DNA of 64,000 bases from an uncultured Rhodospirillaceae bacterium (GTDB lineage: Bacteria > Pseudomonadota > Alphaproteobacteria > UBA9219). The notes below the pieces were generated by a model, which did not search any database, was not told the origin of the DNA, and saw nothing but the letters and a program-made list of their open reading frames with translations. Below are positions 5,390 to 60,673 of this stretch, piece after piece. Position numbers and translations under genes: made by a program. The DNA is taken from contig CAYVNS010000006.1 of the NCBI GenBank assembly GCA_964453225.1, positions 9,036 to 73,035 on the forward strand. The letters run 5' to 3'. Each line of letters begins with the position of its first letter. Position 1 is the first letter of the stretch.

Positions 5390-6076
5390 ATGTCAGAGCT
5401 GGATAGATATAAAAAAGCCGTCTCTATAATCGTTAGAAGAGCGGGAAAATTCGGAGTATCGCTCGACGAAGAGGATGTGCAGAAGCTCAACGTGCTGTGG
5501 ATCGCCATATTCTGGATCGACAGGCATTTTGACGAGAACAATGAAAAAAACTGGGCCGACAAAGTTCTTCCTGGCATTGAAACGGGCAAAATCGATGAAG
5601 GTCTGGGCAGCCATCCTGAGACGCGCGTCGCCGTTCAAAACCTCATCGAGGTCTTGCACTCTCTATCGGAAAGACAGCAAGAGGATTTTAAAGTCGCCCT
5701 TCGGAAAGGGCTGGAACACGGAGAACGCCTTCATACGACAAAAAACATACAGGAATTTATTGAATCGAGGCGCCAGGAGGCCATTCACGTCGGCGATATG
5801 TCCCCCATTTTTTTCGCCGATAAAATCGACCGGCAAGACGAAAAAACGCGCAATCTTATATGGAAATCCTTTCGGGATTGCATGGTCATCTTTAATTTTG
5901 CCGACAGCATCAAGGACGCGATTCAGGATCGGAAGAATAACGAGATTCAGATCAATCCACACCTTCTTCGCCTTCATCTTCTTTTTGGAAATTATCCCGG
6001 AAAACCGCCTGTTCCGCGGTTCCTGAAATGGTTCGCAAAGCGCAAGCTGAAAAGCGCCTTGCATAGGGTGCTATAA
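5390..6076 (+). CDS. Hypothetical protein, paralog B of the tandem pair (228 aa)
   Basis: It lies 30 bp after paralog A on the same strand and aligns with it over the full length. Confidence 0.6.
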   Translation: MSELDRYKKAVSIIVRRAGKFGVSLDEEDVQKLNVLWIAIFWIDRHFDENNEKNWADKVLPGIETGKIDEGLGSHPETRVAVQNLIEVLHSLSERQQEDFKVALRKGLEHGERLHTTKNIQEFIESRRQEAIHVGDMSPIFFADKIDRQDEKTRNLIWKSFRDCMVIFNFADSIKDAIQDRKNNEIQINPHLLRLHLLFGNYPGKPPVPRFLKWFAKRKLKSALHRVL

Positions 6077-6201: not shown

Positions 6202-8733
6202 TTATGCCGCATCCTCTATTAAACGAATAAACTCTTTGCGCCATTCATTGCTATCAACGACGGCGTACTTAATCGGACGTTGCTTAATTGCTTGTGCAAA
6301 AGTCGCTTGGTCAATCTGCATCGTCTTCGATTTTTGATTAGCCATTGAAAAAACCGCATTTTTATAGGTAGTATCATCGTTGTCTTTCAGGTGAACGCCC
6401 TTTGTTTCGACCACGAAAACCTTGAAGTTATCATCGCCATCATTGTCAGTAGAAAAAACAAAATCAGGGAATATCCTATTCTTTTGCCAACCTTGCAGGC
6501 TATATCCAGTCCTAACGCGATTGCGTAGCCAAAAATAAAGCTGTTTTTGATCTTCTAAAAACCAAGCAACATCACGTTCCAAGCCATCGAAATCATCTTC
6601 AAGCTCAACATCAAACAGGGAGAATTGAAGGGGCTGGCCGCGTTTGTTGGTTAGTACTTTTGTATCCCTAACTTGCCGTGGGGAAAACAGCCGCAGCCTC
6701 GCCTTTTCATCAGCGATAATCGTGAAACGTATTTCATCTTTCGCAAGACTTTCATCAAAAGCTAATTTTGCTAATCGGTCTTTTTCTTTCTGAATATGCT
6801 GCTTGGCCTGTTCCACGATATAGACAAAGCTGCTGGCCACCATGTCGCCACCATGCTTGGCTTGCAGTCCGTCTAAAACCTTCTGTGTGACGGAATTGGC
6901 AACCCACGGATTTGGAATTAAGTCATCGGAGAGCACGCGCGCAAGATAGAATGGGTCTAACTCGCCAACGCCGACATCCATACGCTGCACGTCATGTTGC
7001 CGAATAACGTCGTTTTTCTCGCGCCCAAGCCCCACGGCAAAAGTCTCGCCCGTCGGTTTATATTTGGAAAGCGGCAAAGCAAGCAATTCGGACAAATCTA
7101 AAGCCACCCAGTTGATCTGGGCTTCAATGTCCATCGCGTAGCTAACGGGTCGCCACCGTTTTTTATCTTCGCGCCGCGCAAATAAAGGAAGGAAGGCCGC
7201 GCTGATCGCCTTTTGAAATTTGCCTCTTACCGAAGCCGTAATAGTATTCGGTCTATCGTCTATCGCCCTGTCAATTGCCAGTCTTCCAGCCAAATCGCCC
7301 AAGCCTTCATTTTCAAAGCCGTCCTGAATCTGCTTCAACATCTCGGTTGGCATTTGTTGATAGGAATAGACGTAGCTTTCGTCCAAAGCCTTCACGCCGG
7401 TTTTACGAGCTTGGGGTTGGCGCAAGATGCGCCCCACCAACTGAGTTAGGGCCGTCCTTGCCCCCGCATTGGTCAGGATAGCCAACACATAGGCAAAGGG
7501 ACAATCCCAACCTTCCTGCAAGGCATATTTGGTGATGATATAACGTATCTGGCAATCGCGTGATAACAGGCCGTCATCGTCATCAATATCTTCTAAGTCG
7601 TCTTTATCACTGGACTTAATCGCAACTTCGTCTGGCCGAATGCCCCCGACCTCAATCAAATGCTGTTTGATCTGTTCGGCATGGGTGTAGCGGCCATCAT
7701 CGCGCTGATCTTTACCCGTGCGTTCAACCTGAATAAGCAGAATGGGGCGGATAAAGCGGCCAGATTTTGCCCCATAATCACGGGCTTCTTCTTCAAGCTT
7801 ATTGCGCTTTTCAATGGCGTGCCGCAAGGTATCGCGCCAGTCCCACGCGGTTTCGTTCGTAATATGCAGGTCGAGTTTGAGCATTTCTTCTTGCTCTAAT
7901 GCCCTGCCGCTAACGGTAACGAGTTTGTTGGCGGTGGGCTTAGGTGTCGCGGATAGTTCTAGCACGACACAGGGATTAAAACCGGCAATCGTAGCTTGCG
8001 CCAATTCGCCATAGGCTTTGTGGCCTTCGTCTAGAATGACAAGCGGATTGAGCAAGCGCAGGGTATTGCCTAGCGAGGTTTTAGCCCGCCGTTTCAGAAT
8101 ATCGTCTTTGTGGCCGAAATGATCGAGGTTGGGAATTTTATCCAGCAATGCCTCATGTTCAGCGGTCGCATCGTCCATAGGGAAGAAAGTATCAAAGCCC
8201 CCGCTGTCCTGAAACAGTTTCAGCGTATCTTTGTTCTGTCGGTTGGCCGAAGGCAGCATAAGCAAAAGCACAACCAGATTTTCCTGCACATCGAGCGGGG
8301 AAAAACGATCAGTCTTTTCGATAATTTGCGCCCGTCCACCAGTGACAAGGTCAAGATGTTGGCGATAGGGGTGATCTTTGTCGCGCAAGGCTTTCAGCGT
8401 TTGCTGATAAATCTGTTTGGTCGGCACAACCCACAGTACAAGGCCGGTCTTTAATTGGCGGTAATGCAGATTGACCAAGTCGATCACCTTGATCGCAAGA
8501 AAAGTCTTGCCGCCACCGGTGGGGACTTTCAAACAGAAATTTGGAAGCGGGCGACCAAGCCCATCGGCCTTGCCGTGATATTCACTCAATCTCTCCAGCT
8601 TACGCCAAGCCTGTTTAGGGAAGTCAATTTCAAGGTCGGGGTTTTCGTCGGCCTTCCTTTTCCACACGGCCAACTGTTGCAGGTAGTTTCCGACCTGTTT
8701 AAGAGCATCTTGCTGAAACTGTTTCAGTTCCAT
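6202..8733 (-). CDS. res: Type III restriction-modification system restriction subunit (Res; SF2 helicase plus endonuclease)
   Basis: It has a Walker A motif VPTGGGKTFLA and a DEAH-box motif ILDEGHKAYG. At 843 aa it sits immediately downstream of, and 2 bp from, a Mod-type methyltransferase gene on the same strand. Confidence 0.8.
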   Translation of the reverse strand: MELKQFQQDALKQVGNYLQQLAVWKRKADENPDLEIDFPKQAWRKLERLSEYHGKADGLGRPLPNFCLKVPTGGGKTFLAIKVIDLVNLHYRQLKTGLVLWVVPTKQIYQQTLKALRDKDHPYRQHLDLVTGGRAQIIEKTDRFSPLDVQENLVVLLLMLPSANRQNKDTLKLFQDSGGFDTFFPMDDATAEHEALLDKIPNLDHFGHKDDILKRRAKTSLGNTLRLLNPLVILDEGHKAYGELAQATIAGFNPCVVLELSATPKPTANKLVTVSGRALEQEEMLKLDLHITNETAWDWRDTLRHAIEKRNKLEEEARDYGAKSGRFIRPILLIQVERTGKDQRDDGRYTHAEQIKQHLIEVGGIRPDEVAIKSSDKDDLEDIDDDDGLLSRDCQIRYIITKYALQEGWDCPFAYVLAILTNAGARTALTQLVGRILRQPQARKTGVKALDESYVYSYQQMPTEMLKQIQDGFENEGLGDLAGRLAIDRAIDDRPNTITASVRGKFQKAISAAFLPLFARREDKKRWRPVSYAMDIEAQINWVALDLSELLALPLSKYKPTGETFAVGLGREKNDVIRQHDVQRMDVGVGELDPFYLARVLSDDLIPNPWVANSVTQKVLDGLQAKHGGDMVASSFVYIVEQAKQHIQKEKDRLAKLAFDESLAKDEIRFTIIADEKARLRLFSPRQVRDTKVLTNKRGQPLQFSLFDVELEDDFDGLERDVAWFLEDQKQLYFWLRNRVRTGYSLQGWQKNRIFPDFVFSTDNDGDDNFKVFVVETKGVHLKDNDDTTYKNAVFSMANQKSKTMQIDQATFAQAIKQRPIKYAVVDSNEWRKEFIRLIEDAA

Positions 8734-8735
8734 GC

Positions 8736-10559
8736 TTACGCCCCTGCCTTCGTTTTCTTGTTGCTGTCGGCAAGCTGATAAATTTCATAAGGCAGACGAG
8801 CGAAGTCTATGCCGAAGCGGTCGAGATAATCTGGATCGAGGTATTTTGTCGGTGCGAATATCAAACGCCGCTTGTCGCCGACTTTCCACCTGGGCAATGC
8901 CTCGGCCTGATCGAGTGTCAACGCCGTGTTTTTCAGATATTCAACGTCAGGCTGATAGAACAGATAGACGTGATAGTTCCGACTTTCGCCGATATAATTT
9001 TTCTTGGCGTCCAGTTCCTTTTCATTCCATTCTTCGCCTGTGGCCATAAAGAAAACATAACGTGATAGTTCTTTATATGTGGGCAGATTTTTGCCGTTCA
9101 GAATGGTTTGGATTTCAACCGGCTTGCCAAGTTCAAAATAGCTGAACGTGCCGCCCAAGCCTGTTTTCAAGTCTTCGTCTTTCGCTTTCGGTACACCCTT
9201 AATTACGCGCCTCACCCGTTCCGCCGTAATCGTGTCGGCATAATCAAGCGTTTCGATCAAAATAAATTTGCGATTGCCGACGTCTTTTTTGTTCAACGCA
9301 AGAACGGCATGGGCAGTTGTGCCAGAACCGGCGAAGGAGTCGAGGATAATATCGCTTTGTCTTGAAAAAGCTCGTATCAGCTTAGCCGCAACGTCAACGG
9401 GTTTAGATGTATCAAAATCTATCCCAAGAGAGCTTAATAATGCATCATCACTTGCGCCATAATAAAGCAAAGACGGAATGTTTTCACTCATATTTTCTTT
9501 TAATAAGTATTTTCTTTGGGGCTGAGTTTGTTCATCCGATCCAAAAACTATTAATCCCCTTTTTTGAAGATCTGCCATAGTTTCGGGAGGGTTGCGCCAC
9601 CCCTTCGCGGGCACTGGACAAAGTTTTTTATTTGTTGGATGTTTCAAGGGTTTAAAATAATTATCAGGAGCTTTCTTTTTGTTAGGCCATGCCATAGAAA
9701 CAAGACGATATACCTCACCTTTCTCATCTATGTATTTATACATGGCTTCTCCGCCAGATAGGTTGTCCTGTTTAGATAGCCACTTTTGATAATCAATATT
9801 TACTGTATCAAGCGTGCATTTTCGAAAATAATTCGAATCTTCTTTGAGTTCCAGCACGGCTAGTGCGTCCTTAATTGAAATGGGAATACATTTTTTTCCA
9901 ATTTTTCCGAATAAAGCTTTTGCTTTTGTGATCATTCTTTCAGCATTTTGCTTTGGCGCGACTAATCCATTATGCTTCTTGAAAGTTTGTTTTGATTTTG
10001 CAAAGCAAATAATAGCTTCATGCTGATATGAAATTCCATCACTATCTCCTTTGGGGTTACGTTTATCCCATATAATTTCCCCCAAAAAATTACATTCGTT
10101 AAATATCTCACCTAAGATACTCCTTAAATTGTTGCATTCGTTTTCATCTATATGGATTACTATTGCTCCATCCTCTGCCAGTAAATCCTTCAGCAACCTT
10201 AACCTCGGCCACATCATGCAAAGCCACTTATCGTGCCGCGTGAGGTCTTCCTTATCGACTACTTTGCCAAACCATTCCTTAAACATCGGATCATTGACGT
10301 TATCGTTATAAACCCAACCCTCGTTTCCGGTGTTGTAGGGCGGATCGATATAGATGCACTTGATCTTGCCGTGATGCGTCGGCAGCAAAGCTTTCAACGC
10401 GGCCAGATTGTCGCCGTGGATAATAACATTATCGTGCAGGCTAACTTTGCCGTCTTTGGCCACGACGCTTTTGGCTTTTATCGGCTTCAGCTCATGAAAA
10501 GGCACAACCAAGTGATGGTTTTGAACAAGCTGTTTACCTTTGAACTGCAATGAGGGCAT
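8736..10559 (-). CDS. mod: Type III restriction-modification system DNA methyltransferase (Mod; beta-class N6-adenine/N4-cytosine MTase)
   Basis: The catalytic motif IV IYIDPPYNTG precedes the AdoMet motif I ILDSFAGSGTTAHAV. That is the circularly permuted order typical of Mod subunits. It is 607 aa, and this stretch of the gene is AT-rich. Confidence 0.85.
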   Translation of the reverse strand: MPSLQFKGKQLVQNHHLVVPFHELKPIKAKSVVAKDGKVSLHDNVIIHGDNLAALKALLPTHHGKIKCIYIDPPYNTGNEGWVYNDNVNDPMFKEWFGKVVDKEDLTRHDKWLCMMWPRLRLLKDLLAEDGAIVIHIDENECNNLRSILGEIFNECNFLGEIIWDKRNPKGDSDGISYQHEAIICFAKSKQTFKKHNGLVAPKQNAERMITKAKALFGKIGKKCIPISIKDALAVLELKEDSNYFRKCTLDTVNIDYQKWLSKQDNLSGGEAMYKYIDEKGEVYRLVSMAWPNKKKAPDNYFKPLKHPTNKKLCPVPAKGWRNPPETMADLQKRGLIVFGSDEQTQPQRKYLLKENMSENIPSLLYYGASDDALLSSLGIDFDTSKPVDVAAKLIRAFSRQSDIILDSFAGSGTTAHAVLALNKKDVGNRKFILIETLDYADTITAERVRRVIKGVPKAKDEDLKTGLGGTFSYFELGKPVEIQTILNGKNLPTYKELSRYVFFMATGEEWNEKELDAKKNYIGESRNYHVYLFYQPDVEYLKNTALTLDQAEALPRWKVGDKRRLIFAPTKYLDPDYLDRFGIDFARLPYEIYQLADSNKKTKAGA

Positions 10560-10875: not shown

Positions 10876-10949
10876 TGGAGCGGGTGAAGGGAATCGAACC
10901 CTCGTCGTAAGCTTGGGAAGCTTCTGCTCTACCATTGAGCTACACCCGC
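10876..10949 (-). tRNA. tRNA-Gly (anticodon CCC), CCA encoded
   Basis: The reverse complement reads GCGGGTGTAGCTCAATGGTAGAGCAGAAGCTTCCCAAGCTTACGACGAGGGTTCGATTCCCTTCACCCGCTCCA. It has a 7-bp acceptor stem, a D-loop AGCTCAATGGTAGAGC, an anticodon loop TTCCCAA and a T-loop GGTTCGATTCC. Confidence 0.85.
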
Positions 10950-15961: not shown

Positions 15962-18900
15962 TCACGTCCTTATGATCCACCTGTTCAGCATCGCGGCAAT
16001 CTGTTCCTGCTTAAACGGCTTGTTCAAATAATCATCCATGCCCGCATCAAGGCATTTTTCCCGATCGCCTGTCATGGCGTCCGCCGTGAGCGCGACAATA
16101 ATCGTGTGATTTTTTCCGTTGGCCTCTTCCTCCCGGATGCGGCGCGTCGCCTCGAAGCCGTCCATGATCGGCATTTGGCAGTCCATGAAAACAATATCGT
16201 ATTTCGTTTCCCTAATCTTGGCGACGCCCTCCTCGCCGTTGTAGGCCGTATCGATGGATGTGACTTCCATTTTTTCGAGGATTTTCTGCATCAGCATCTG
16301 GTTGACCTTCATATCCTCGACAAGAAGAACGCGCGCGCCCTGGAACGACCCCTTTTGCTGGCGGGCCTCGGCATCGCCGTTTTGAAGCTGCGCGATCATG
16401 CTGCGCGTCAGAAGCCCCCTTTTGTCTTTCTTCTGATAGCCGTCCCACAATATTTTAAAGGCGTCTTGCAGCTGATCGGGGAAAAGAGGCCGTGTCAGCA
16501 AGGCGGCGCGATCCGTGCATTTCAGGATGCGCGTGGCCGTTTGCGGCCCGAAAACGGCGGCTATGACAAACATGACGTTGCGCACTTCGTTCGGTATTTC
16601 CTTCGCATCCATCAGTTCCAGAATTCTTTGGACGCCGATCTTGTCGTCGACGTAGACGAAGTGGAAAGCCGCGCCATCCTGGCTCGCATCTTTCAATTGC
16701 TGAAGAAAATTCTGGAAATCGTCGCAAAAGCTGCCGGCCATTCCCCATGCCTTAAGGTAATCGCCGATTATCTTGCGCTTAATATCGCCATCGCAGAAAA
16801 CAAGCACGCGAAGGCCGCGGATATCGATCGGCGGGACTTTAGATATATCGTTAAGGGGCCTTGGGAGATTGATGTCAAAATGGAAATTGGATCCTTTGCC
16901 GACTTCGCTATCGACCTTAATTTCGCTTTCCATCAGATTGATCAGCAGTTGGCTGATGGCAAGGCCGAGACCCGTGCCGCCAAAGCGTCGCGTCGTGGAT
17001 TCCTCGGCTTGCGAGAACTTGTTGAAAATGTGCGCCAGATGCTCGGAGGCAATGCCGATGCCCGTGTCTTTGACGCTAATGGAAAGCCTTGTGTCGCTTG
17101 CCCCGACATTCCGGCTTCCTATATCGAGGAAAACATGGCCTTTCGGCGTAAATTTAATGGCGTTGCCCACAAGATTAAGGACGACCTGCTTGATGCGCAG
17201 CACATCGCCGATCAAATAGCGCGGAGTCGCCGGATCAATTCGGACAATCAGCTCGATTCCTTTTTCATGCGCGCGCAGAACCAGCATGTCGGTGATTTCC
17301 GCCATCGCCGAATAAAAATTGAACGTCACAAACTCCAGCTTCATGCGGCCGGCTTCGATTTTGGAAAAATCGAGAATATCGTTGATGATCTCCAAAAGGC
17401 CCATGCCGGAGTTGTAGATGATTTCGGCCCAGCTTCGCTGTTCGGCGTCGAGCTTCGTATCCATCAAGAGCCGCGCCATGCCAAGCAGCCCGTTCATCGG
17501 CGTGCGTATTTCGTGGCTCATGTTCGCAAGGAAGTCGCTCTTCGCGGCATTGGCCTGTTCGGCCGCAAGCTGCGCTTTCATCGCTTTCGTTTGCGAAACT
17601 TCGATTTCGCCAATGAACAGCTGCAACTGCAATTCGCGCGCGCTGATTTCCTCGACCTGCTGTTCCAAAAGAGCTTTATTTTTTTCGACTTCAATCTGCT
17701 CCAGCGTTGCTTCCGCGCGGTTGTAGTTAATGCAGTTCCCCGGATGATCGTTGCCCTTTAATATCGCGGTGGCAAAGCGGCGGCAGCTGCCGTAGCCGCA
17801 GGAAAAACAATCGATGTGCCGGCTTTCTTCATCCAGTTTGTGAAGTTTCGTGAAAACCTCGTCGTATTGTTCTTCGCTGAAGCTTTCTTCTTCCGACCGT
17901 TTTCTTTTATCGACGTAGCTGCGAAGGAAATCATCCAGTTTCAGGGTTTTATCGAACTCCTTAAACAGGGAATAGACAACCTTGCCGTCTTCGGTTTTCT
18001 CTTTCTCCTGCAATTTCTGCACCTTCAAGGCGTTGATCTGCGAGTCGATGTCGTCGATGCAGGCGTCCTTGCATGTGCCGGTGCCAAGATTGCATCCATG
18101 CGGGCAATTTAATACATCGAGGAAGAGAGGCAGGCTTTTTCCCTCCCTTATGCGTTCGGAATATTCCGAAAGATAGGTATACGCGTGGTCGACGCCTTCG
18201 ATCTGGCGCACCCATGCATGGCCTTTAGTATGATATTCAAGATTTTCCCTTAGGCCTCCCGGGCGGCAAAAAACCATCCCGATTCCGCAGCCGACATCGT
18301 CGAAATCCTTTTCAAGCTGGTTATCGAGGCGAATATTATGGGCCGCCATATACGCGGCCAGCTTTTTGAACGTCACGTTGTAGGAAACGATATTGCCCGT
18401 GTCCCGGAGTTCCTGCGTTTTTCCGAGACACGGTGAGAGAAAGGCTATTTTGTCGTTCACGCCGACATAATTTCTCATGTAGATGGCCGAACAAAGCGCG
18501 GGGCTGTGAACCGGGGCGAGATTCTCTATGAGCTCGGTCTTGTGCTTTTCAATAAAGGAAACGATCGGCGGGCACGGCTGCGCGATGATCGAGGCCAGGC
18601 GCTTGTCATCGACCACTTTCAGATAAGCCCACGTCGTAATATCCGCGCCGAAGGAAACGTCGTAAACGAGGTTGACGCCGAGGCTTTTCAATAACCCGAA
18701 AAGTTTTTTGTAATTGGCGACGTTGTATCGAATGGACGGCGCCGCAATAACCGAAATTTTTTCGCCTTTGGCAAGATCGGAAAAAAAGGCTTCTGTGTCG
18801 TCGATGTAGTCGCGGGCGCCGTGCGTGCAAACCGCTATGCACTGTCCGCAATTAATGCAGCGGTCGGGATGAATGCGAACCTTGTTCTTTCCGTTTACAA

Positions 18901-18994
18901 CGTAGGCCACATTCGCGTCCTCGACAGGGCAGCGGGCAATGCATTTGTTGCAACCGATGCATTTGCTTTCATCGAGAACGATAATGTCGGGCAT
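15962..18994 (-). CDS. Hybrid sensor histidine kinase with N-terminal 2x[4Fe-4S] ferredoxin and [FeFe]-hydrogenase-like (H-cluster domain-like) sensor, HisKA, HATPase_c, C-terminal receiver
   Basis: CIGCNKCIARCP and CINCGQCIAVC are ferredoxin motifs. QPCPP, LSPCLGKTQE and LNCPHGCNLGTG correspond to the three [FeFe]-hydrogenase signature motifs TSCCP, MPCxxKxxE and ExMxCxxGCxxG, with reduced cysteine content. The H-box is ANMSHEIRTPMNG, the G-box is [10 protein letters not shown], and the receiver has DIVFMDCQMPIMDG and a T/K pair. Confidence 0.8.
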   Translation of the reverse strand: MPDIIVLDESKCIGCNKCIARCPVEDANVAYVVNGKNKVRIHPDRCINCGQCIAVCTHGARDYIDDTEAFFSDLAKGEKISVIAAPSIRYNVANYKKLFGLLKSLGVNLVYDVSFGADITTWAYLKVVDDKRLASIIAQPCPPIVSFIEKHKTELIENLAPVHSPALCSAIYMRNYVGVNDKIAFLSPCLGKTQELRDTGNIVSYNVTFKKLAAYMAAHNIRLDNQLEKDFDDVGCGIGMVFCRPGGLRENLEYHTKGHAWVRQIEGVDHAYTYLSEYSERIREGKSLPLFLDVLNCPHGCNLGTGTCKDACIDDIDSQINALKVQKLQEKEKTEDGKVVYSLFKEFDKTLKLDDFLRSYVDKRKRSEEESFSEEQYDEVFTKLHKLDEESRHIDCFSCGYGSCRRFATAILKGNDHPGNCINYNRAEATLEQIEVEKNKALLEQQVEEISARELQLQLFIGEIEVSQTKAMKAQLAAEQANAAKSDFLANMSHEIRTPMNGLLGMARLLMDTKLDAEQRSWAEIIYNSGMGLLEIINDILDFSKIEAGRMKLEFVTFNFYSAMAEITDMLVLRAHEKGIELIVRIDPATPRYLIGDVLRIKQVVLNLVGNAIKFTPKGHVFLDIGSRNVGASDTRLSISVKDTGIGIASEHLAHIFNKFSQAEESTTRRFGGTGLGLAISQLLINLMESEIKVDSEVGKGSNFHFDINLPRPLNDISKVPPIDIRGLRVLVFCDGDIKRKIIGDYLKAWGMAGSFCDDFQNFLQQLKDASQDGAAFHFVYVDDKIGVQRILELMDAKEIPNEVRNVMFVIAAVFGPQTATRILKCTDRAALLTRPLFPDQLQDAFKILWDGYQKKDKRGLLTRSMIAQLQNGDAEARQQKGSFQGARVLLVEDMKVNQMLMQKILEKMEVTSIDTAYNGEEGVAKIRETKYDIVFMDCQMPIMDGFEATRRIREEEANGKNHTIIVALTADAMTGDREKCLDAGMDDYLNKPFKQEQIAAMLNRWIIRT

Positions 18995-20925: not shown

Positions 20926-21019
20926 GGAGACGTGGCCGAGTGGCTGAAGGCGGCGGTTTGCTAAACCGTTATAGGTTTGTAAAGGCCTATCGAGGGTTCG
21001 AATCCCTCCGTCTCCGCCA
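20926..21019 (+). tRNA. tRNA-Ser (anticodon GCU), CCA encoded
   Basis: GGAGACGTGGCCGAGTGGCTGAAGGCGGCGGTTTGCTAAACCGTT followed by a long variable arm, then GAGGGTTCGAATCCCTCCGTCTCCGCCA. The anticodon loop TTGCTAA gives GCT. Confidence 0.9.
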
Positions 21020-21131: not shown

Positions 21132-21164
21132 AACCTTTAATAAGATGGTTCCTTATTAAAGGTT
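21132..21164. promoter_or_regulatory. Perfect 13-bp inverted repeat with 7-nt spacer immediately upstream of the fic start
   Basis: aacctttaataag atggttc cttattaaaggtt. Confidence 0.4.
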
Positions 21165-21171
21165 GGGCTTT

Positions 21172-22350
21172 ATGGAAAAAGCATCAAACAAGAACAGACT
21201 CGGCTCCTACGTTTCTCGGTCTAGCGCCGGAGAAATGTACAAGGCCTTCGTACCCCCTGCTCTGCCGCCTGATCCGCCGCTTGATATGGATAGACTATAC
21301 AAACCACTCGACAAGGCCATGAAGGCTTTGGGCGAACTGGATGCTTTGGCAAAGCTTCTTCCGGATATAGGCCTTTTCCTTTACATGTACGTTCGTAAAG
21401 AAGCCCTCCTATCTTCGCAGATAGAAGGAACTCAGTCGTCTTTATCCGATCTTCTGCTTTTTGAAAATCAGGAAAAGACAAATGCACCGGCGGACGATGT
21501 CGAGGAAGTTTCAAATTATATCGCCGCGCTTAATCATGGACTGAAGCGGATGAGGGGAGGTTTCCCTTTATCGACCCGCCTTATACGCGAAATGCACGCT
21601 ATTTTATTACGCGGCGGGCGCGGTTCCACTAAAGCGCCTGGAGAGTTTCGCCGCTCGCAGAACTGGATTGGCGGCACCAGGCCCGGTAAGGCTCGTTATG
21701 TCCCCGCTCCACCTGAAATGGTTGGCGACCTTATGAGCGATTTGGAAAAATTTATCTACACCGACAAACAAAGCCTGCCGACTTTGATTAAGGCAGCGCT
21801 CGTTCATGTGCAGTTTGAAACGATCCATCCTTTTCTCGACGGCAATGGACGTCTGGGGCGGCTGCTCATTACCTTGTTGCTCTGCGCTAACGAGACGCTG
21901 GTTCAGCCGATTTTGTACCTCAGCCTGTATTTTAAAGAACATCGGCAGATTTATTACGATCTTCTGCAAGACGTCCGATTGAAAGGCGATTGGGAAGAAT
22001 GGTGTGAATTCTTCCTTGATGGAGTGCAGGAAACGGCAACCAAAGGCTCGGCTGACGCGAAAAAAATTATTGATCTATTAGAGCGCGATCGCAAACGTAT
22101 CGGCGTGATCGGCAAGGCATCAAAGAGTGCATTAAAAGTTCATGAGTATCTGCTGAAGAAACCGTTTCTGTCGATCACCAAGGCATCAAAGACGCTTAAG
22201 CTATCTGTTCCGACCACAACGAATGCCGTGCAGAAATTAGTGAAGATCGGGCTCCTGAAAGAACTAACCGGCGGCGCACGAAACAGGCTTTTCGCATATA
22301 CCGATTATCTGGCCATTCTAACTGTTGGCACCGGGCCGCTGAAGAAATAA
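21172..22350 (+). CDS. fic: Fic family protein (AMPylation/Fido domain)
   Basis: The Fic motif HPFLDGNGRLGRLL is present. The track ORF starts at an upstream TTG, but the ATG at 21172 (MEKASNKN) is more likely. Confidence 0.85.
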   Translation: MEKASNKNRLGSYVSRSSAGEMYKAFVPPALPPDPPLDMDRLYKPLDKAMKALGELDALAKLLPDIGLFLYMYVRKEALLSSQIEGTQSSLSDLLLFENQEKTNAPADDVEEVSNYIAALNHGLKRMRGGFPLSTRLIREMHAILLRGGRGSTKAPGEFRRSQNWIGGTRPGKARYVPAPPEMVGDLMSDLEKFIYTDKQSLPTLIKAALVHVQFETIHPFLDGNGRLGRLLITLLLCANETLVQPILYLSLYFKEHRQIYYDLLQDVRLKGDWEEWCEFFLDGVQETATKGSADAKKIIDLLERDRKRIGVIGKASKSALKVHEYLLKKPFLSITKASKTLKLSVPTTTNAVQKLVKIGLLKELTGGARNRLFAYTDYLAILTVGTGPLKK

Positions 22351-39498: not shown

Positions 39499-39605
39499 GG
39501 GAAGTCCCTCGCATAAGGTTAACTTGGCAGTATATCCATATATCTCCTTTTCCTGCAAGAGGAGATGAATCAGGTGTCTTATTAGAGCATTATCATGGCA
39601 AAAAG

Positions 39606-39761
39606 AACGCTCGTCATGCCCGCGGAGGCGGCATCCCATTTGGTTTTCTTGCCAAATAAACAATCTCCAAAATCTTTGAAATCCCGTCAAAAGGAACGCT
39701 CGTCATGCCCGCGGAGGCGGGCATCCATTTGGTTTTCTTGCGGGATAAACAATCTCCAAAA
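39606..39761. repeat. Two near-identical 67-bp palindrome-containing units separated by 22 bp (family: GTCAT-palindrome-ATCCATTTGGTTTTCTT)
   Basis: aacgctcgtcatgcccgcggaggcgg(g)catcc(c)atttggttttcttgc....aaacaatctccaaaa occurs twice. The core gcccgcggaggcgggc is an inverted repeat. Confidence 0.7.
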
Positions 39762-54159: not shown

Positions 54160-54265
54160 CGGAACGCCGCAAAAAGGACAGAATTTCCTCTATCCTTTGG
54201 GATATTCGCATAAACGGAACAATCATGTTCACACTGAAGCACCATTCGGGGTTCAAGAATACTAA

Positions 54266-54306
54266 CCCCTCCCCCTTGATGGGGGAGGGGTTGGGTGGGG
54301 GTGATG
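54266..54306 (+). repeat. G-rich hairpin repeat unit (CCCTCCCCCTTGATGGGGGAGGGGTTGGGTGGGGGTGATG)
   Basis: The same unit occurs at 57869-58190 (array) and 60572-60609. Confidence 0.7.
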
Positions 54307-54383: not shown

Positions 54384-57086
54384 ATGACGATGAAAGCGCA
54401 AAAGTGGGTCTATAGTTTCGGGAACGGACAAGCGGAAGGCCGCGCCGATATGCGCAACCTCCTCGGCGGCAAAGGCGCCGGCCTTGCCGAAATGTCTAAT
54501 CTGGGCTTGCCCGTCCCTCCGGGATTTACGGTAACGACCGACGTATGCACCCACTACTACGCGCACGCCCATGCCTATCCCGATGATTTGAAAAATCAGG
54601 TGAACGCGGCTCTCGCGCAGGTCGAGGCGATAACGGGTTCCAAATTCGGCGATGCCGGGAACCCCCTGCTCGTTTCCGTTCGCTCCGGCGGGCGCGCGTC
54701 GATGCCGGGCATGATGGATACGGTTTTGAATCTTGGCCTTAACAAAGCGACGGTCGAGGGCCTGAAGGCGCAAAGCGGCAATCCCCGTTTTGCCTACGAC
54801 AGCTACCGCCGCTTTATCCAGATGTACAGCAACGTCGTGCTTGGCCTTGAGCATCATCTGTTTGAGGAAATCATCGACGACGTCAAGCGCGCGCAAGGCT
54901 ATGCGCTGGACACCGAGATGACGGCCGACGACTGGCAGGAAGTGACTGAGGCTTACTTGAAAACGGTCGAAAAGCACTTCGGCAAGCCGTTTCCGCAGGA
55001 CGTGCAGGATCAACTCTGGGGCGCGGTCGGCGCCGTTTTCGGCTCGTGGATGAATTCGCGCGCCATCACGTACCGCAAGCTGAATGAAATTCCTCATGAT
55101 TGGGGAACCGCCGTAAACGTCCAGGCGATGGTTTTCGGCAATCGCGGCGACGATTGCTGCACCGGCGTGGCCTTTACGCGCAATCCGTCGACGGGCGAAA
55201 ACGCCTTCTACGGCGAATACCTTGTCAACGCGCAAGGCGAAGACGTGGTCGCCGGCATTCGCACCCCCCAGAATCTAACGATCAAAGCGAAGCAGGAACA
55301 GAACGCGCAGCTTCCCGCGATGGAAGAAGTCATGCCCGACGTTTTCAATCAATTAAACGCCGTGCGCCTGAAGCTCGAAAAGCATTATCGCGATATGCAG
55401 GACATCGAATTCACCGTCCAGCAAGGCAAGCTTTACATGCTTCAAACCCGCACCGGCAAGCGGACGGCGGCGGCGGCCATGAAAATCGCCGTCGATCTCG
55501 TGAACGAAGGCTTGATCGATCAAAAAGAGGCGGTCAAGCGCATCGACCCCAAATCGCTCGACCAGCTTTTGCATCCGACGCTCGATCCGAAGGCGAAGAA
55601 GAACATCATCGCCAAGGGATTGCCGGCATCGCCGGGCGCGGCGTCGGGCAAGGTCGTTTTTTCCGCCGATGACGCCGAGGCGCTGTCGAACAAAGGCATG
55701 AAGGTCATTCTGTGCCGCGTTGAGACCAGCCCCGAAGACATTCACGGCATGCACGCCGCCAAGGGCATCGTCACCAGCCGCGGGGGCATGACAAGCCACG
55801 CGGCCGTCGTCGCGCGCGGCATGGGCCGCGCCTGCGTGGCGGGCGCGGGCGAGCTGCATATGGAGTACGGCAAGAAGCAAATGTCCGTGAAAAACGTCAC
55901 GATCAAGGAAGGCGATATTATTACGATCGACGGCTCGACGGGCGAGATTATGCTGGGCGAGATTCCAACGGTTCAGCCTGAATTATCGGGCAGCTTTGCC
56001 ACGTTGATGGGCTGGGCGGACGGGCTTCGCCGTCTCAAAGTCCGCACAAACGCCGAAACGCCGCTCGATGCGCGCACGGCGCGCAAGTTCGGGGCCGAAG
56101 GCATCGGGCTTTGCCGCACCGAGCATATGTTCTTCGATACCGACCGCATCACCTCGATGCGGGAAATGATCATCGCCGACGACGAAGAAGGCCGCCGCGC
56201 CGCTTTGGCGAAGCTGGAGCCGATGCAGATCAAGGATTTCGTCGATCTGTTCACGATCATGGAAGGCTTGCCGGTTACGATCCGCCTTCTCGATCCGCCG
56301 CTTCATGAATTCCTTCCCCATCAGGAAGCGGAAATAGCGTTGGTGGCGGCGGCGGCGTGCTGCTCGGCCGACAAGGTGCGCAAGCGCACGGCGGTGCTTC
56401 ACGAATCGAACCCCATGCTGGGGCACCGCGGCTGCCGTCTGGGCATTTCCTATCCTGAAATATACGAAATGCAGGCACGCGCCATTTTCTCGGCAACGGT
56501 CGAGATGGCCCGGCAAGGCAAAAAACTTACACCCGAAATCATGATTCCCCTCGTCGCCTCGCGCAAGGAATTCGACATTTTAAAAAGAATGATCGACCGC
56601 GTGGCCGAAGACATTCAAAGGGACTCCGGCGAAACGCTCGCCTATCTGGTGGGAACGATGATCGAGCTTCCGCGCGCGGCCCTGCGCGCGGGCGATATCG
56701 CCGAAAGCGCCGAGTTTTTCAGCTTCGGCACAAACGATTTGACGCAGACAACCTACGGCCTTAGCCGCGACGACGCCGCGTCCTTCCTTCCCGACTATTA
56801 CAAGGCGAATGTCTTCGAAAACGATCCGTTCGCGACGCTCGATCAGGAAGGCGTGGGCGAATTGATCTCCATCGCGGCCGAGCGCGGGCGCAAAGCGCGC
56901 GCCGACATCAAGCTTGGAATCTGCGGCGAGCACGGCGGCGATCCGGCTTCCGTCAAGTTCTGCCACCGGACGGGATTGAATTATGTTTCTTGCTCGCCCT
57001 ATCGCGTTCCCATCGCTCGTCTCGCGGCGGCGCAAGCGGCTATCGAAAACGATAGCGACGAAGCCGCGCGCAAAAACGCCGCCTGA
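54384..57086 (+). CDS. ppdK: Pyruvate, phosphate dikinase
   Basis: ATP-grasp N-terminus GGKGAGLAEM, the phospho-His region GGMTSHAAVVARG, and a PEP-utilising C-terminus. 900 aa. Confidence 0.9.
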   Translation: MTMKAQKWVYSFGNGQAEGRADMRNLLGGKGAGLAEMSNLGLPVPPGFTVTTDVCTHYYAHAHAYPDDLKNQVNAALAQVEAITGSKFGDAGNPLLVSVRSGGRASMPGMMDTVLNLGLNKATVEGLKAQSGNPRFAYDSYRRFIQMYSNVVLGLEHHLFEEIIDDVKRAQGYALDTEMTADDWQEVTEAYLKTVEKHFGKPFPQDVQDQLWGAVGAVFGSWMNSRAITYRKLNEIPHDWGTAVNVQAMVFGNRGDDCCTGVAFTRNPSTGENAFYGEYLVNAQGEDVVAGIRTPQNLTIKAKQEQNAQLPAMEEVMPDVFNQLNAVRLKLEKHYRDMQDIEFTVQQGKLYMLQTRTGKRTAAAAMKIAVDLVNEGLIDQKEAVKRIDPKSLDQLLHPTLDPKAKKNIIAKGLPASPGAASGKVVFSADDAEALSNKGMKVILCRVETSPEDIHGMHAAKGIVTSRGGMTSHAAVVARGMGRACVAGAGELHMEYGKKQMSVKNVTIKEGDIITIDGSTGEIMLGEIPTVQPELSGSFATLMGWADGLRRLKVRTNAETPLDARTARKFGAEGIGLCRTEHMFFDTDRITSMREMIIADDEEGRRAALAKLEPMQIKDFVDLFTIMEGLPVTIRLLDPPLHEFLPHQEAEIALVAAAACCSADKVRKRTAVLHESNPMLGHRGCRLGISYPEIYEMQARAIFSATVEMARQGKKLTPEIMIPLVASRKEFDILKRMIDRVAEDIQRDSGETLAYLVGTMIELPRAALRAGDIAESAEFFSFGTNDLTQTTYGLSRDDAASFLPDYYKANVFENDPFATLDQEGVGELISIAAERGRKARADIKLGICGEHGGDPASVKFCHRTGLNYVSCSPYRVPIARLAAAQAAIENDSDEAARKNAA

Positions 57087-57256
57087 TAAAAAAATCAAAT
57101 CGAGACATAGAACTCCGGGAAAAAGGTTAATCCCGTTGTTCACGTACGCCTTGTGTGAAAGTAAAAAAGCAATAGAGAATAAAGCGAAAATAGAATATTA
57201 TGAATGAAGCAGAAATATTTTAGGTCATTATTTTTATATTTATTTTGGGAGTGAAA

Positions 57257-57778
57257 ATGTCAGAGGTCGGGTTTGGAAAAATATATTCCGATGTGAAGAG
57301 ATTATGGGGCATTTTAACGAACGAGGAAGCCGCAAAAGCAGAACAACCGGTTACGATTACTGTTTCCGATATTGCACAAGAAAACACGTGGGACATTGCC
57401 CCCTTTTCCATTGAAAGAATCGGCCAGACTGGCAAAATTTATGATACTCAGTTCGCAACCGTTCATACACAAGGTTGTGATTACGAAAATGTTCTTATTA
57501 AATCTCCGGGGGATAATTACGACCTCATCTCCACGCTTGAACAAATGGGGATTGTACTAAAAGAACTAACAAAAAGGCTTCCTTGCGGGTATGGATCCGA
57601 CACACGTGTCAATTTAGCCTCAGTCGTTAATTGTGACCATGGAAGACGTGCGGGTACTATTGAACTCCGCTTCAAGAGCGGCAATTCCATTATGGTCGAC
57701 GGCGATTGTGCCGACATTCAAGAAGCCGTTCGGGCAGCGCATAAAAGAAAACGAAGTCCTACTGGGCCTACGCGTTAA
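57257..57778 (+). CDS. Hypothetical protein in an AT-rich insert downstream of ppdK
   Basis: The ATG gives MSEVGFGKIY with an upstream GGGAG. There is no motif. The flanks are duplicated ppdK tails. Confidence 0.4.
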   Translation: MSEVGFGKIYSDVKRLWGILTNEEAAKAEQPVTITVSDIAQENTWDIAPFSIERIGQTGKIYDTQFATVHTQGCDYENVLIKSPGDNYDLISTLEQMGIVLKELTKRLPCGYGSDTRVNLASVVNCDHGRRAGTIELRFKSGNSIMVDGDCADIQEAVRAAHKRKRSPTGPTR

Positions 57779-57830
57779 ACAATCATCTGCACTTGATGGA
57801 TAGCCGACGCCACTGCGCCAGATCAAAAAA

Positions 57831-57868
57831 GAAGCGACGAAGCCGCACGCAAAAACGCCGCCTAGATG
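57831..57868 (+). repeat. Direct repeat of the last ~31 nt of ppdK (agcgacgaagccgcacgcaaaaacgccgcctag)
   Basis: One mismatch versus 57054-57086. Confidence 0.7.
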
Positions 57869-58190
57869 CGGGAGAGTTGGGTGGGGGTGATGCCTCAGAA
57901 GACGGAAAGCAGAAGTATAGGCCAGAAAGATTCCCCTCCCCTTGCGGGAGGGGTAAGGGGAGGGGTTAGCGTTAAAGTAATACAGAAGCCGAAAGTCGCA
58001 AGCCGGTGAGGGAAGGCAAAAGAAAAAGCCCTCCCCCTTGATGGCTCGAAGCGGGAAAACGATCCGGTGAATCGTTTTCCCCGCGAGAGGGGTTGGGTGG
58101 GGGTATGGTTCAGAAGGCAGAAAGCAGGAAACAGAAGACAGAAAAAAGCCCTCCCCCTTGATGGGGGAGGGTTGGGTGGGGGTGATGGTT
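57869..58190 (+). repeat. Array of about four G-rich hairpin units separated by purine-rich spacers, one unit interrupted by a nested perfect palindrome
   Basis: Units are at about 57869-57892 (tail half), 57933-57968 (variant), 58028-58110 (interrupted by gggaaaacgatccggtgaatcgttttccc) and 58149-58190 (complete). Confidence 0.7.
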
Positions 58191-58292
58191 TAGAAGACAG
58201 AAAGAAATTCACTTCCCTCTCGCACAACTCGAATTCAGCCTCCTAAATTCCATATAGAATTGAGAAAAGAATAGTCGGTACGGGTCTAAGAA

Positions 58293-58320
58293 AGCGACGA
58301 AGCCGCACGCGAAATGCGGC
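58293..58320 (+). repeat. Second partial direct repeat of the ppdK 3' tail (agcgacgaagccgcacgc), followed by a hairpin
   Basis: 18-nt match, then gccgcacgcgaaatgcggc forms a stem-loop. Confidence 0.55.
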
Positions 58321-58376
58321 TTGATCATAGCCAATCGATATAAAAGGGATAGTCTTTGAAATGTAGACAGCAGCGA

Positions 58377-58553
58377 TTAATTTTGCCCCTGACCATTCCG
58401 TTCCATCGCCGCTTTGTATGCAGCCATTTCGGATGTATATGCATCCTGAACGACGCCTGAAGCATTAGCGAATGGCATCGGCTCACCTCTTTGAGCCGCC
58501 GCCCTGGCTTCAATAATCTGTTGTGTCATCATCTGCTGTTCTTCATAGCTCAT
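58377..58553 (-). CDS. Small hypothetical ORF (58 aa), paralogous to 58742-58906
   Basis: Manual translation gives MSYEEQQMMTQQIIEARAAAQRGEPMPFANASGVVQDAYTSEMAAYKAAMERNGQGQN, with AAGGAG 7 nt upstream. It is below the 60-aa cutoff of the track. Confidence 0.35.
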   Translation of the reverse strand: MSYEEQQMMTQQIIEARAAAQRGEPMPFANASGVVQDAYTSEMAAYKAAMERNGQGQN

Positions 58554-58741: not shown

Positions 58742-58906
58742 TTACCCCGCGCTCTGCTGATCGTCCCGGGCTTTCTTTTCCGCAAGATAGGTATTTAACA
58801 CATTCTGCGGCCACGTTGAATCAGGCGGTTGCCCTTCCCTTGCCGCAGCCCGCGCCGCATCCATCTGTTCCGCCATTTTATCCTGCTCTGTTTTTCCGTC
58901 GGCCAT
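58742..58906 (-). CDS. Small hypothetical ORF (54 aa), paralogous to 58377-58553
   Basis: Manual translation gives MADGKTEQDKMAEQMDAARAAAREGQPPDSTWPQNVLNTYLAEKKARDDQQSAG, with GGAGGG upstream. It shares the block (E/D)AARAAA(Q/R)xG(E/Q)P with the other ORF. Confidence 0.35.
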   Translation of the reverse strand: MADGKTEQDKMAEQMDAARAAAREGQPPDSTWPQNVLNTYLAEKKARDDQQSAG

Positions 58907-59085: not shown

Positions 59086-59232
59086 AGGGCGTGGCATCAA
59101 TTGAACAAGCTTGAGGCGAAAAGTGTGATTTTTCAGGATTTCGAGCGCAGCGTACTTGTCGTACGTGAGCATCGAAATCCTGAAAAAGTGCGCTTTGCAG
59201 CCCAAGATCGTTCAATTGATGCCACGCCCTAC
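59086..59232. repeat. Nested palindromic, MITE-like element with 21-22 bp terminal inverted repeats, abutting the dgt stop
   Basis: The outer arms agggcgtggcatcaattgaaca / cgttcaattgatgccacgccct match 21/22. The inner arms are tttttcaggatttcga / tcgaaatcctgaaaaa. Confidence 0.55.
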
Positions 59233-60405
59233 CTAAACCACAATCCCTGTCGCAAAAAGCCTGTGATGTTCCTTAATGGCATAGCGGTCGGTCATGCCCG
59301 CGATGTAATCGGCGATGATGCGGGCCTTTTTGTCTTTATCCTTCTCGGCCCTGAAGGCATTACTCCACGAAGCGGGCATGCTGCTCGGCTTGTTGATATA
59401 GGCCTCGAAAAGATCATGCACGATTTGCCGCGCCTTTGCGCATGTGTCGTTGACGCGCTCATGCCGGTACATGCGGGAATGCAGGAACAAATGAATAATC
59501 GCGATATGCCGCCCCATTTCCTCGCTGAAAGCGACGGTCGCTTTCGGCGCGCAGCGGATCTCTTTCGCGGACTTCGGCTTTAAGTCTTTCAGATTAAGCT
59601 TAGTGGCTCCCAGCACATCGTCGACCATAAGGCCGATCACTTCGCGAACGACCTCGTACATCACGCGTTGCGGCGCAGAATCCGCATAGGCGCTGCGCAT
59701 CTTTTTCAAAGTCGCCTTGAACAAGGGTAGTTCGCTCAAATCGTCCATATGAAAGAACCCCGCCCTGTGGCCGTCGTCGATGTCGTGGGTGTTATAGGCA
59801 ATATCGTCCGAAAGCGCGGCCACTTGCGCTTCCGGCCCCGCATAGGTCGTTAGCTCCAGGTCCCATTTTTCGTTGAACGCGCGCACTGTCGGCCCCATCG
59901 AAGAAGCATCGAGAGGCCCATTGTGCTTTATGATGCCTTCCAGCGTTTCCCAAGAAAGATTCAGTCCGTCGAAACGGGCGTATCTATGCTCAAGCTTCGT
60001 CACGATGCGGAAAGTTTGCTCGTTATGGTTAAAGCCGCCATAGGGCTTCATGGCCTCGTCAAGCCCCTCCTCCCCGGCATGGCCGAAGCACGTATGCCCA
60101 AGGTCATGGGCCAGAGCGATGCATTCCGCCAGATCTTCGTCGAGGCCAAGCGCGCGGCTGATCGAGCGGGCGATTTGCGCGACTTCCAAGGTATGCGTCA
60201 ATCTGGTGCGATAATAATCGCCCTCGCTTTCGATAAAAACCTGCGTCTTGTTGCGCATTTTTCGAAAGGCCCCGGAATGAACGATCCGATCCCGATCGCG
60301 CTGAAACGGCGTCCGCGAAGAGCTGGGCGCTTCGGGAACAAGGCGGCCCCGGCTCTCCGAAGCTTTGGTCGCGTAAACGGCAAGGGATGGATTTAGGACA
60401 GCCAT
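59233..60405 (-). CDS. dgt: dGTP triphosphohydrolase-like HD-domain protein
   Basis: YRTRLTHTLEVAQIAR and LAHDLGHTCFGHAGE HD motifs. 390 aa. Confidence 0.8.
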   Translation of the reverse strand: MAVLNPSLAVYATKASESRGRLVPEAPSSSRTPFQRDRDRIVHSGAFRKMRNKTQVFIESEGDYYRTRLTHTLEVAQIARSISRALGLDEDLAECIALAHDLGHTCFGHAGEEGLDEAMKPYGGFNHNEQTFRIVTKLEHRYARFDGLNLSWETLEGIIKHNGPLDASSMGPTVRAFNEKWDLELTTYAGPEAQVAALSDDIAYNTHDIDDGHRAGFFHMDDLSELPLFKATLKKMRSAYADSAPQRVMYEVVREVIGLMVDDVLGATKLNLKDLKPKSAKEIRCAPKATVAFSEEMGRHIAIIHLFLHSRMYRHERVNDTCAKARQIVHDLFEAYINKPSSMPASWSNAFRAEKDKDKKARIIADYIAGMTDRYAIKEHHRLFATGIVV

Positions 60406-60571
60406 GAAAGGATCATATCATCCCTTCGCAAAAGGGAAAGCTGTCAAAAAAACGGCGTTTAAGGATAAAATTCTAAAAACCTCTTTAAAAACCATTTTTT
60501 AACCGCATATGTATAGATATTCCAGTGGATGTAGAGCAATTCCGAACATCACCCGGAATCGACTTATAAAT

Positions 60572-60673
60572 CCCTCCCCCTTGATGGGGGAGGGTTTGGG
60601 TGGGGGTGACGGCAAGGATTGCGTTGTGATCGAGATCACACCCATCCCGACCTTCCCCTATCAAGGGGGAAGG
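60572..60673 (+). repeat. G-rich hairpin unit plus two further hairpins in the pepN 5' leader
   Basis: ccctcccccttgatgggggagggtttgggtgggggtgacgg, then gtgatcgagatcac, then ccttcccctatcaagggggaagg. Confidence 0.55.

Follow-up and report, generated by a model that had tools for sequence, protein, structure and literature searches.

Relic copies of the ppdK terminus point to two successive insertions between ppdK and dgt in an uncultured Micavibrio-like alphaproteobacterium

Why should the end of one housekeeping gene be found three times at a single gene junction? This question is raised by the spacer between ppdK (pyruvate, phosphate dikinase) and dgt (dGTP triphosphohydrolase) in an uncultured Micavibrio-like alphaproteobacterium (GenBank assembly GCA_964453225.1, contig CAYVNS010000006.1). 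The stretch analysed, hereafter the window, comprises 64,000 nucleotides of this contig, and positions refer to it unless a relative is named. ppdK (54384-57086, + strand) is intact and encodes 900 aa with the Pfam domains PPDK_N, PEP-utilizers and PEP-utilizers_C. It is convergent with dgt (59233-60405, - strand; Pfam HD and HD_assoc; NCBIfam NF002328, 520 bits against a cut-off of 467), and 2146 bp separate the end of ppdK from the dgt stop codon. A preliminary description of the sequence had proposed that two successive insertions at the ppdK terminus left duplicates of the gene end behind. The present analysis supports this proposal, as both downstream copies read as the C-terminal peptide of the ppdK product followed by a stop codon.

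The three copies are referred to as T1, T2 and T3, all on the + strand. T1 (57042-57087, IENDSDEAARKNAA) is the functional terminus of ppdK, with its TGA stop codon at 57084-57086. T2 (57822-57867) is a relic terminus and is separated from T1 by a proximal segment, E1 (57088-57821, + strand), and T3 (58290-58324), read as the oldest relic, follows a distal segment, E2 (57866-58289, + strand). A 31-nt stretch of the ppdK tail, AGCGACGAAGCCGCGCGCAAAAACGCCGCCT (57054-57084), is found again at 57833-57863 with the one mismatch previously described, and its first 18 nt recur at 58293-58310. The 18-mer AGCGACGAAGCCGCRCGC occurs exactly three times in the 64 kb, where 0.05 occurrences are expected; at position 15 of this core, T1 has G, and T2 and T3 have A. 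When gaps were allowed, T1 (57042-57087) aligned with T2 (57822-57867) over 46 nt with three mismatches and two indels (score 65) and with T3 (58290-58325) over 37 nt (score 37), against a score of 18 ± 2.3 and a maximum of 29 for block-shuffled spacers. A fourth tail copy, inverted tail copies and duplicated dgt ends were looked for, and none was found.

The copies also agree as coding sequence. T1 reads SDEAARKNAA-TGA, and T2 reads SDEAARKNAA-TAG, with the TAG at 57863-57865. A 1-nt deletion just before AGCGAC in T2 puts this peptide out of frame with the preceding ppdK-like ATCAAAAAAGA. T3 reads SDEAA and continues as GCA CG- CGA AAT GCG GCT TGA, that is, A-R-(R)-N-A-A-stop with one base deleted; relative to T1, it carries K>R and three third-position changes (AAC>AAT, GCC>GCG, GCC>GCT). 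Since the reading NAA-stop is confined to three places in the six frames of the window, namely T1, T2 and T3, the last of these is a third ppdK terminus, of the ARRNAA type. The closest ppdK proteins, which are 78-89% identical, have in common the C-terminal pattern D-[VI]-x-A-R-[KR]-N-A-A-stop, and ppdK of the relative L092 (relatives are given here by such labels) ends in CGA AAT GCA GCC TGA, which has the codons CGA AAT ... TGA in common with T3. The third-position changes, the K>R replacement, the ARRNAA type and the codons common to L092 therefore suggest that T3 diverged as a coding tail and not as a random copy. The third copy had been described as 18 nt followed by a hairpin. Both are present, the hairpin being a perfect 8-bp stem in which 58300-58307 pairs with 58315-58322 (-14.6 kcal/mol, z = -1.8), while the remainder is better described as a diverged ppdK terminus. 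Within the tail core itself, a weak 5-bp stem is present; the folding of T1 and T2 does not surpass that of shuffled sequences (z about -1.2).

The junctions from T1 through E1 to T2 are not specific to one assembly, as a Logan assembly contig, L001, which was assembled independently from run SRR8925805, is identical to the window at 56934-57959. Together with the length of the longest exact word common to any two tail copies (about 20 nt, too short for a graph of k = 31 or larger), this makes an assembly artefact very unlikely.

Which of the three ends is the ancestral one can be judged from the DNA beyond T3. Two small genes lie there on the - strand, s58 (58377-58553, 58 aa) and s54 (58742-58906, 54 aa), which are tandem paralogues with 39% identity over 41 aa (pairwise E = 2e-6). 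A 77-aa open reading frame (ORF) of L093 (pairwise E = 3e-5) and a 75-aa ORF of L167 can be aligned with s54; the two are 70% identical to each other, and both lie immediately downstream of dgt. A profile search of 5.8 billion proteins recovered six members of this small-protein family, all from this clade. Members of the s54 family thus neighbour dgt in both L093 and L167, so the sequence to the right of T3 is native DNA, and the 52 nt between the T3 stop and the s58 stop resemble the near-empty ppdK-dgt junctions of relatives. With a native right side, and with relatives that lack a duplicated tail, T3 would represent the ancestral terminus and 57088-58289 some 1.2 kb of inserted DNA. Two further observations concern this side of the junction. 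The family has the N-terminal motif MSNxKTxAEQ...DARxGxxPDP (L093 13311-13544; L167 6963-7190). Directly after the dgt stop codon, a 145-nt near-perfect palindrome (59086-59230) with 59-nt arms that are 83% complementary folds at -90 kcal/mol (z = -11.5); it is present in a single copy in the window and could be an insertion resembling a miniature inverted-repeat transposable element (MITE) or an unusually long terminator.

The relatives provide the second line of evidence. A genome-collection scan with ppdK gave, among the matches listed, relatives of at most 74% identity that had no ppdK-dgt synteny; closer relatives, with ppdK proteins that are 85-89% identical in the closest cases, came from a protein search and contig look-ups. 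Their gene order is glyS-ppdK-(0-2 variable genes)-dgt, and their ppdK-dgt spacers range from 5 to 1161 bp. In L168, the spacer is 5 bp, and in L094, it is 53 bp with one bidirectional terminator hairpin. In L090, the gap holds a 118-aa ORF; L092 and L093 have an AAA_33 kinase-like gene there, in one or the other orientation, and L167 has a short-chain dehydrogenase gene; three further relatives have lost the adjacency of dgt. Among the seven loci that keep it, the present genome has the longest spacer. A second ppdK tail was found in none of ten relatives, where the best scores were 15-26 against 65 and 37 here, so that tail duplications are seen in this genome only among those compared. The preliminary description had named two findings that would count against insertion, namely the same arrangement without direct repeats in relatives, or repeats belonging to a terminator common to many genes. 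No relative has such an arrangement, and the motif is found at only three places in the window. The proposed insertion at the ppdK end thus holds, with native DNA beyond T3 and spacers in relatives that are compact or differently filled and free of tail duplicates.

As the gaps of relatives are empty or differently filled, the ppdK-dgt junction is a gene-insertion hot spot in the Micavibrio-like alphaproteobacterial clade. The closest relative, L083 (89% ppdK identity), has a ppdK end that is identical to the last 19-21 nt of T2. Downstream of ppdK, L083 also carries a tandem array of the heptamer GGATTCR (region 2849-3326) and, about 450 bp from ppdK, the start of an ORF, MKEITTIGLDLAK, at which the contig ends. 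We take this ORF start to resemble the N-terminus of IS110-family transposases, as a candidate only.

What, then, was inserted? E1 is 734 bp long, flanked by T1 and T2, and AT-rich, with a GC content of 0.37-0.44 against 0.55-0.63 in its flanks. It shows no DNA similarity to the corresponding loci of relatives. Its one gene (57257-57778, + strand, 173 aa), already described as an AT-rich ORF unlike the backbone, is preceded by a ribosome-binding site, GGGAG (57247-57251), 5 nt upstream. A promoter-like -35/-10 site (57173-57201, + strand) is a weak consensus match whose count does not exceed that of shuffled sequences. The orphan ORF is very probably a real gene, because its stop-free run of 184 codons is longer than that in all 2000 of 2000 shuffles (maximum 159). 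It looks foreign by composition, because its GC content at third codon positions (GC3) is 0.40 against 0.63-0.75 in host genes. The encoded protein found only itself in a word-indexed search of 5.8 billion proteins and in a full phmmer search of 1.84 billion representatives, and no credible match was obtained in Pfam, PHROGs, PADLOC, NCBIfam or the PDB sequences, where the best E-value, 0.015, belonged to an unrelated reductase. A single-sequence AlphaFold model was unusable (predicted local distance difference test score, pLDDT, 33). A 177-aa ORF downstream of ppdK in L082 was compared and is not homologous. The AT-rich leader and ribosome-binding site of the orphan gene (57223-57256) resemble L167 6129-6163 (29 of 35 nt, E = 0.019), which is the leader of a dehydrogenase gene that is inserted behind ppdK there and is unrelated to the orphan gene; this likeness may reflect chance AT-richness or a common expression signal.

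E2 is 424 bp long and gene-less. It consists of four head-to-tail G-rich hairpin units of about 45 nt with purine-rich linkers (57864-58210), followed by 79 nt of unique sequence. The unit, CCCTCCCCCTTGATGGGGGAGGG-TTGGGTGGGGGTGATG, forms a strong hairpin followed by a G-run. The stop codon of T2 abuts the first unit directly, and the T2 tail replaces the left arm of that unit. In the third unit, a 44-nt hairpin, GCGGGAAAACGAT...ATCGTTTTCCCCGC (58045-58088, + strand), is nested within the stem-loop; it is unrelated to the G-rich unit, occurs once in the window and makes a repeat within a repeat. The G-rich array had been described as the content of this interval. The units are present there, yet they are not peculiar to it: one lies at 54263-54306 (+ strand), about 80 nt upstream of the ppdK start, and another at 60568-60611 (+ strand), just upstream of pepN. 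These repeat units (54264-54306 and 60568-60612) are the only matches of E2 elsewhere. The unit was not found in the first 54 kb of the window or in the loci of relatives, and a scan of viral contigs with it gave no match. The earlier view that both intervals hold foreign DNA therefore has to be divided: E1 is foreign in composition, whereas E2 is not demonstrably foreign cargo, because the same unit stands upstream of ppdK and pepN. An old insert may have been colonised by a repeat already resident in the genome, or E2 may have brought in the repeat, which then spread locally; a spread of units from E2 to the regions upstream of ppdK and pepN is a possibility linked to the cassette reading of E1 considered below.

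A canonical G-quadruplex motif, GGGGGAGGGTTGGGTGGGGG, is part of the G-rich unit. The window has five such motifs in its 64 kb, which all fall within 54.28-60.61 kb; four of the five are G-rich units in sense orientation, and two of these four precede ppdK and pepN at a short distance. A related hairpin lies at 60651-60673 (- strand). This clustering could reflect local spread or a regulatory role. In being short (about 45 nt), GC-rich, hairpin-forming and intergenic, and in occurring singly or in head-to-tail clusters, the units are similar to repetitive extragenic palindromic (REP) sequences and bacterial interspersed mosaic elements (BIMEs). They differ in that the copies seen are five, on one strand and all within 6.4 kb, in that each unit bears the G-quadruplex motif, and in that no REP-associated tyrosine transposase (RAYT) was seen here.

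How the two segments came to lie between three gene ends is probably explained by two integrations of the Campbell type, one following the other and each a single crossover at a mimic of the ppdK tail. The starting state would have been a ppdK ending at T3, followed by a spacer of about 50 bp and, on the opposite strand, the small genes and dgt. Two circular DNA molecules, each carrying a mimic of the last 35-46 nt of ppdK, would have integrated in turn, with the crossover falling within the shared core AGCGACGAAGCCGC(A/G)CG. A chromosome B-core-B' and a circle P-core-P' would give B-core-P' ... P-core-B', where B' is the native right arm of T3, P2' the right arm of T2 and P1' that of T1. Each integration would thereby supply a new working ppdK tail from the incoming DNA and displace the former tail downstream as a relic. 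The first event would have placed E2 between T2 and T3, and the second would have placed E1 with the orphan gene between T1 and T2. The inserts would most likely be stripped-down remnants or minimal passengers, with an integrase that acted in trans or was deleted.

Several observations are consistent with such a course. T2 and T3 have about 20 identical nt, AAGCGACGAAGCCGCACG, and then diverge to the right, while T1 and T2 have a common right arm, AAAAACGCCGCCT, and differ there only in the stop codon; at core position 15, T2 and T3 agree in having A, unlike T1. Crossover within a common core produces such a mosaic of identities. The identity profile of the 3' part of ppdK against relatives is flat, by which an imported block in this part was rejected, and the flat profile and the intact 900-aa gene fit the supply of a tail by each integration. 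The gene-less and more decayed segment, E2, is the distal one. From this topology, we infer that E2 came first and E1 second. Circular intermediates and a site-specific recombinase, probably of the tyrosine type, would have been involved. Within the two-integration reading, a site-specific recombinase acting in trans is favoured and takes the larger part of the confidence placed in it, since both events would have made use of one and the same 18-nt core. Insertion mediated by microhomology, the other route considered beforehand, or by homology may instead have been at work.

Compared with known systems, E1 and E2 represent a familiar phenomenon, namely tandem integration remnants at a gene 3' end, with a new target, a new lineage and cargo without homologues (an ORFan). 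The closest parallel is provided by the cis-mobilizable elements (CIMEs) and microCIMEs of Streptococcus, which are integrase-less remnants found in tandem at the 3' ends of fda, rpsI, rpmG and rplL (PMC7563491). In these tandems, it is the gene-less and most decayed unit that is farthest away from the target gene; microCIMEs, which have no gene, measure 130-220 bp, and classical CIMEs 1.2-13 kb (PMC7563491). As in those arrays, direct repeats of a housekeeping-gene 3' end, resembling attL and attR, bound the remnants here (T1 and T2 bracket E1, and T2 and T3 bracket E2), the units build up in tandem at one site, and the target gene is kept intact as the element supplies a new end. The gene-less unit is again distal, and the 424 bp of E2 are comparable to microCIMEs. 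Genes for an integrase, a relaxase, a coupling protein or a type IV secretion system are absent, as expected of the class: E1 has one ORF without a family match, and E2 has none. The differences are that E1, with 734 bp and one gene, is smaller than classical CIMEs, that the host is an uncultured Micavibrio-like alphaproteobacterium and not a Firmicute, and that no cognate integrative and conjugative element (ICE), integrative and mobilizable element (IME) or integrase was found for E1 or E2; an integrase-bearing element at the same att site was sought in the ppdK loci of 12 relatives, where neither an integrase nor a tail repeat was seen, and in about 35 ORFs of the window. Nor is there a sequence sign of descent from a conjugative element, as E1 and E2 show no similarity outside this genome, a result that does not exclude such descent.

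A second parallel concerns the target itself. In Bacteroidota, PvCTn-like conjugative transposons have the 3' end of ppdK as their integration site and regenerate its stop codon (PMC11005914); their attB is a 20-bp AAQAAIE-coding motif, GYSGCNCARGCKGCHRTHGA, in this gene end (PMC11005914). The target gene and gene end are the same as here, and integration makes, or here would have made, imperfect direct repeats and regenerates the ppdK stop within a few residues. The attB motif is present in the window at 57027-57046. However, the repeats found here (57042-57087) overlap only its last 5 nt and lie downstream, so the direct repeats are not at GYSGCNCARGCKGCHRTHGA, and those elements are large, carry a tyrosine integrase and conjugation genes, neither of which is found in E1 or E2, and belong to a different phylum. 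The likeness is one of principle and not of site. Genomic islands that grow by repeated integration at the 3' ends of tRNA or other genes, such as the tycheposon islands of Prochlorococcus (bioRxiv 10.1101/2020.12.28.424599), are similar in that partial target copies mark successive integrations and in that cargo is retained after integrase loss; they differ in having mostly tRNA targets, a much larger size and known integrase-bearing versions.

Other classes of element were considered for E1 and rejected. An integron cassette does not fit, as paired attC core sites (RYYYAAC...GTTRRRY) were not seen at the ends of E1 by inspection without a covariance model, and its boundaries are 35-46-nt gene-end copies, with a leader of its own that bears a promoter-like site. 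An integrative mobile element exploiting the host XerCD at dif (IMEX) was rejected, since the repeat is a coding gene tail without the dyad of a 28-bp dif-like site (two 11-bp arms about a 6-bp spacer), as judged by eye against the E. coli-type consensus, which may not be that of the host lineage. An IS200/IS605-type or other transposon was rejected with neither a Pfam or NCBIfam transposase match nor terminal inverted repeats, and a MITE was rejected because its defining features are missing. Rfam gave only chance-level matches and two tRNAs, with a permissive threshold for the region and gathering scores for the whole window.

A number of points weigh against the two-integration reading. No integrase, excisionase or relaxase gene or pseudogene, nor any other recombinase gene or pseudogene, was found in E1, in E2 or among the roughly 35 window ORFs scanned, and no excised form was found. 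An attP-bearing element was not found in viral or metagenome collections, where all matches were chance ones: viral-contig scans with the 18-mer core gave six, none longer than the 18-mer, and a metagenome scan with GCRCGCAAAAACGCCGCCT gave 71, none of which was a ppdK end or an att-like site. A mobile element at the ppdK 3' end was likewise found in none of 12 relatives. Beyond the core, the arms next to T2 and T3 have no more than about 5 nt in common, which makes the case for related elements thin, and the asymmetry between left and right divergence is of marginal significance (p of roughly 0.03 in the comparison with T2 and 0.1 in that with T1). The same three third-position changes that suggest a coding history for T3 also complete its 8-bp stem, so that coding constraint and selection for structure are confounded there and cannot be separated. 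Finally, E2 is built of a repeat family present elsewhere in the genome and may never have been a discrete foreign element.

The alternative that survives best dispenses with a dedicated recombinase. Circularised fragments from related bacteria, consisting of a ppdK tail and the donor's downstream DNA, could have paired with the resident tail through 20-46 nt of homology and entered by RecA-driven single crossovers. The resulting topology, and the mosaic in which an identical core adjoins diverged arms, would be those of the two-integration reading, and the missing integrase is accounted for naturally. The T2 tail is identical to that of L083, and the spacer varies throughout the clade as a hot spot in which each relative carries a single gene of its own; both observations also suit this explanation. 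RecA, however, usually needs a minimum length of homology to recombine efficiently, and the 18-46 nt of imperfect homology concerned just reach this minimum or fall short of it; they would also have had to serve twice at the same place. Moreover, nothing similar to the E1 gene or its flanks lies downstream of ppdK in any relative, the GC3 of 0.40 in E1 speaks against a donor from this clade, and the 3' part of ppdK holds no imported block. On balance, RecA-driven entry is considered rather unlikely.

Duplication at a break is improbable. According to this explanation, a double-strand break in the ppdK tail was followed by capture of DNA through end-joining or microhomology-mediated repair with fill-in, and the local 35-46 nt were copied on both sides, like a very long target-site duplication, with later drift. 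Direct repeats of the target do lie exactly at the insert boundaries, no recombinase was found, and the changes between T2 and T1 are scattered and include two indels, as in a decaying copy. Yet two independent events at the same 18-nt position would be required, and the divergence is concentrated to the right of the core. The changes in T3 are third-position changes with an ARRNAA tail of the type of another lineage, where neutral local decay predicts otherwise. Duplications of 35-46 nt also far exceed the known target duplications of bacterial transposons.

A variant of the two-integration reading may be mentioned, although little probability is attached to it: E1 could be a complete minimal mobile unit and not a remnant, that is, a single-gene cassette of about 0.78 kb. 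Its only requirement in cis would then be the 35-46-nt mimic of the ppdK tail, with a recombinase encoded elsewhere acting in trans. The weakest explanation, a functional motif, such as a terminator or a regulatory element that is placed repeatedly behind several genes, or else an assembly artefact, finds some support in the weak 5-bp stem of the core, the 8-bp hairpin of T3 and a source that appears to be a draft assembly, but it is largely refuted and very improbable, as the motif is at three places only in 64 kb and absent from relatives, T1 and T2 do not fold beyond chance, a second assembly reproduces T1-E1-T2 exactly and the exact words common to the copies are too short to mislead an assembler.

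Some other features of the window may be recorded. A ResIII helicase-like protein of 843 aa and an N6_N4 methyltransferase of 607 aa form a type III restriction-modification pair (6202-10559) that adjoins tRNA-Gly(CCC) at 10876-10949, which suggests an island at a tRNA gene. The neighbouring ORFs at 686-4156, 4544-5359 and 5390-6076 have no Pfam match, and the 1156-aa member of these three includes a tandem repeat of 186 nt (2001-2338). Immediately after tRNA-Ser(GCT) (20926-21019) comes a gene (21163-22350) for a Fic/DOC-family protein whose C-terminal domain is a winged helix. A hybrid histidine kinase of 1010 aa (15962-18994, - strand; Fe_hyd_lg_C, Fer4, HisKA, HATPase_c and receiver domains) has Fe-only-hydrogenase-like and 4Fe-4S ferredoxin domains at its N-terminus and may be a redox or H2 sensor. 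The intergenic region 39599-39761 holds an 89-nt unit in 1.8 tandem copies with 92% match.

The locus offers no new mechanism. For annotation, it yields two pseudo-termini, one ORFan and one repeat family, and it identifies an intact gene without homologues as recently acquired cargo. It is a compact example of a conserved convergent junction of core genes that serves as a landing pad for new genes, in which the order of the relic ends records the order of events, the gene end being copied and the old end pushed downstream. The ppdK 3' end as an integration site is thereby extended from Bacteroidota to a distant and poorly studied alphaproteobacterial lineage, and the arrangement points to a possible ppdK-targeting element yet to be found. 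Should E1 be a complete cassette, a gene-end-targeting cassette system would exist in Micavibrio-like alphaproteobacteria, and it might explain why a different single gene lies between ppdK and dgt in each relative.

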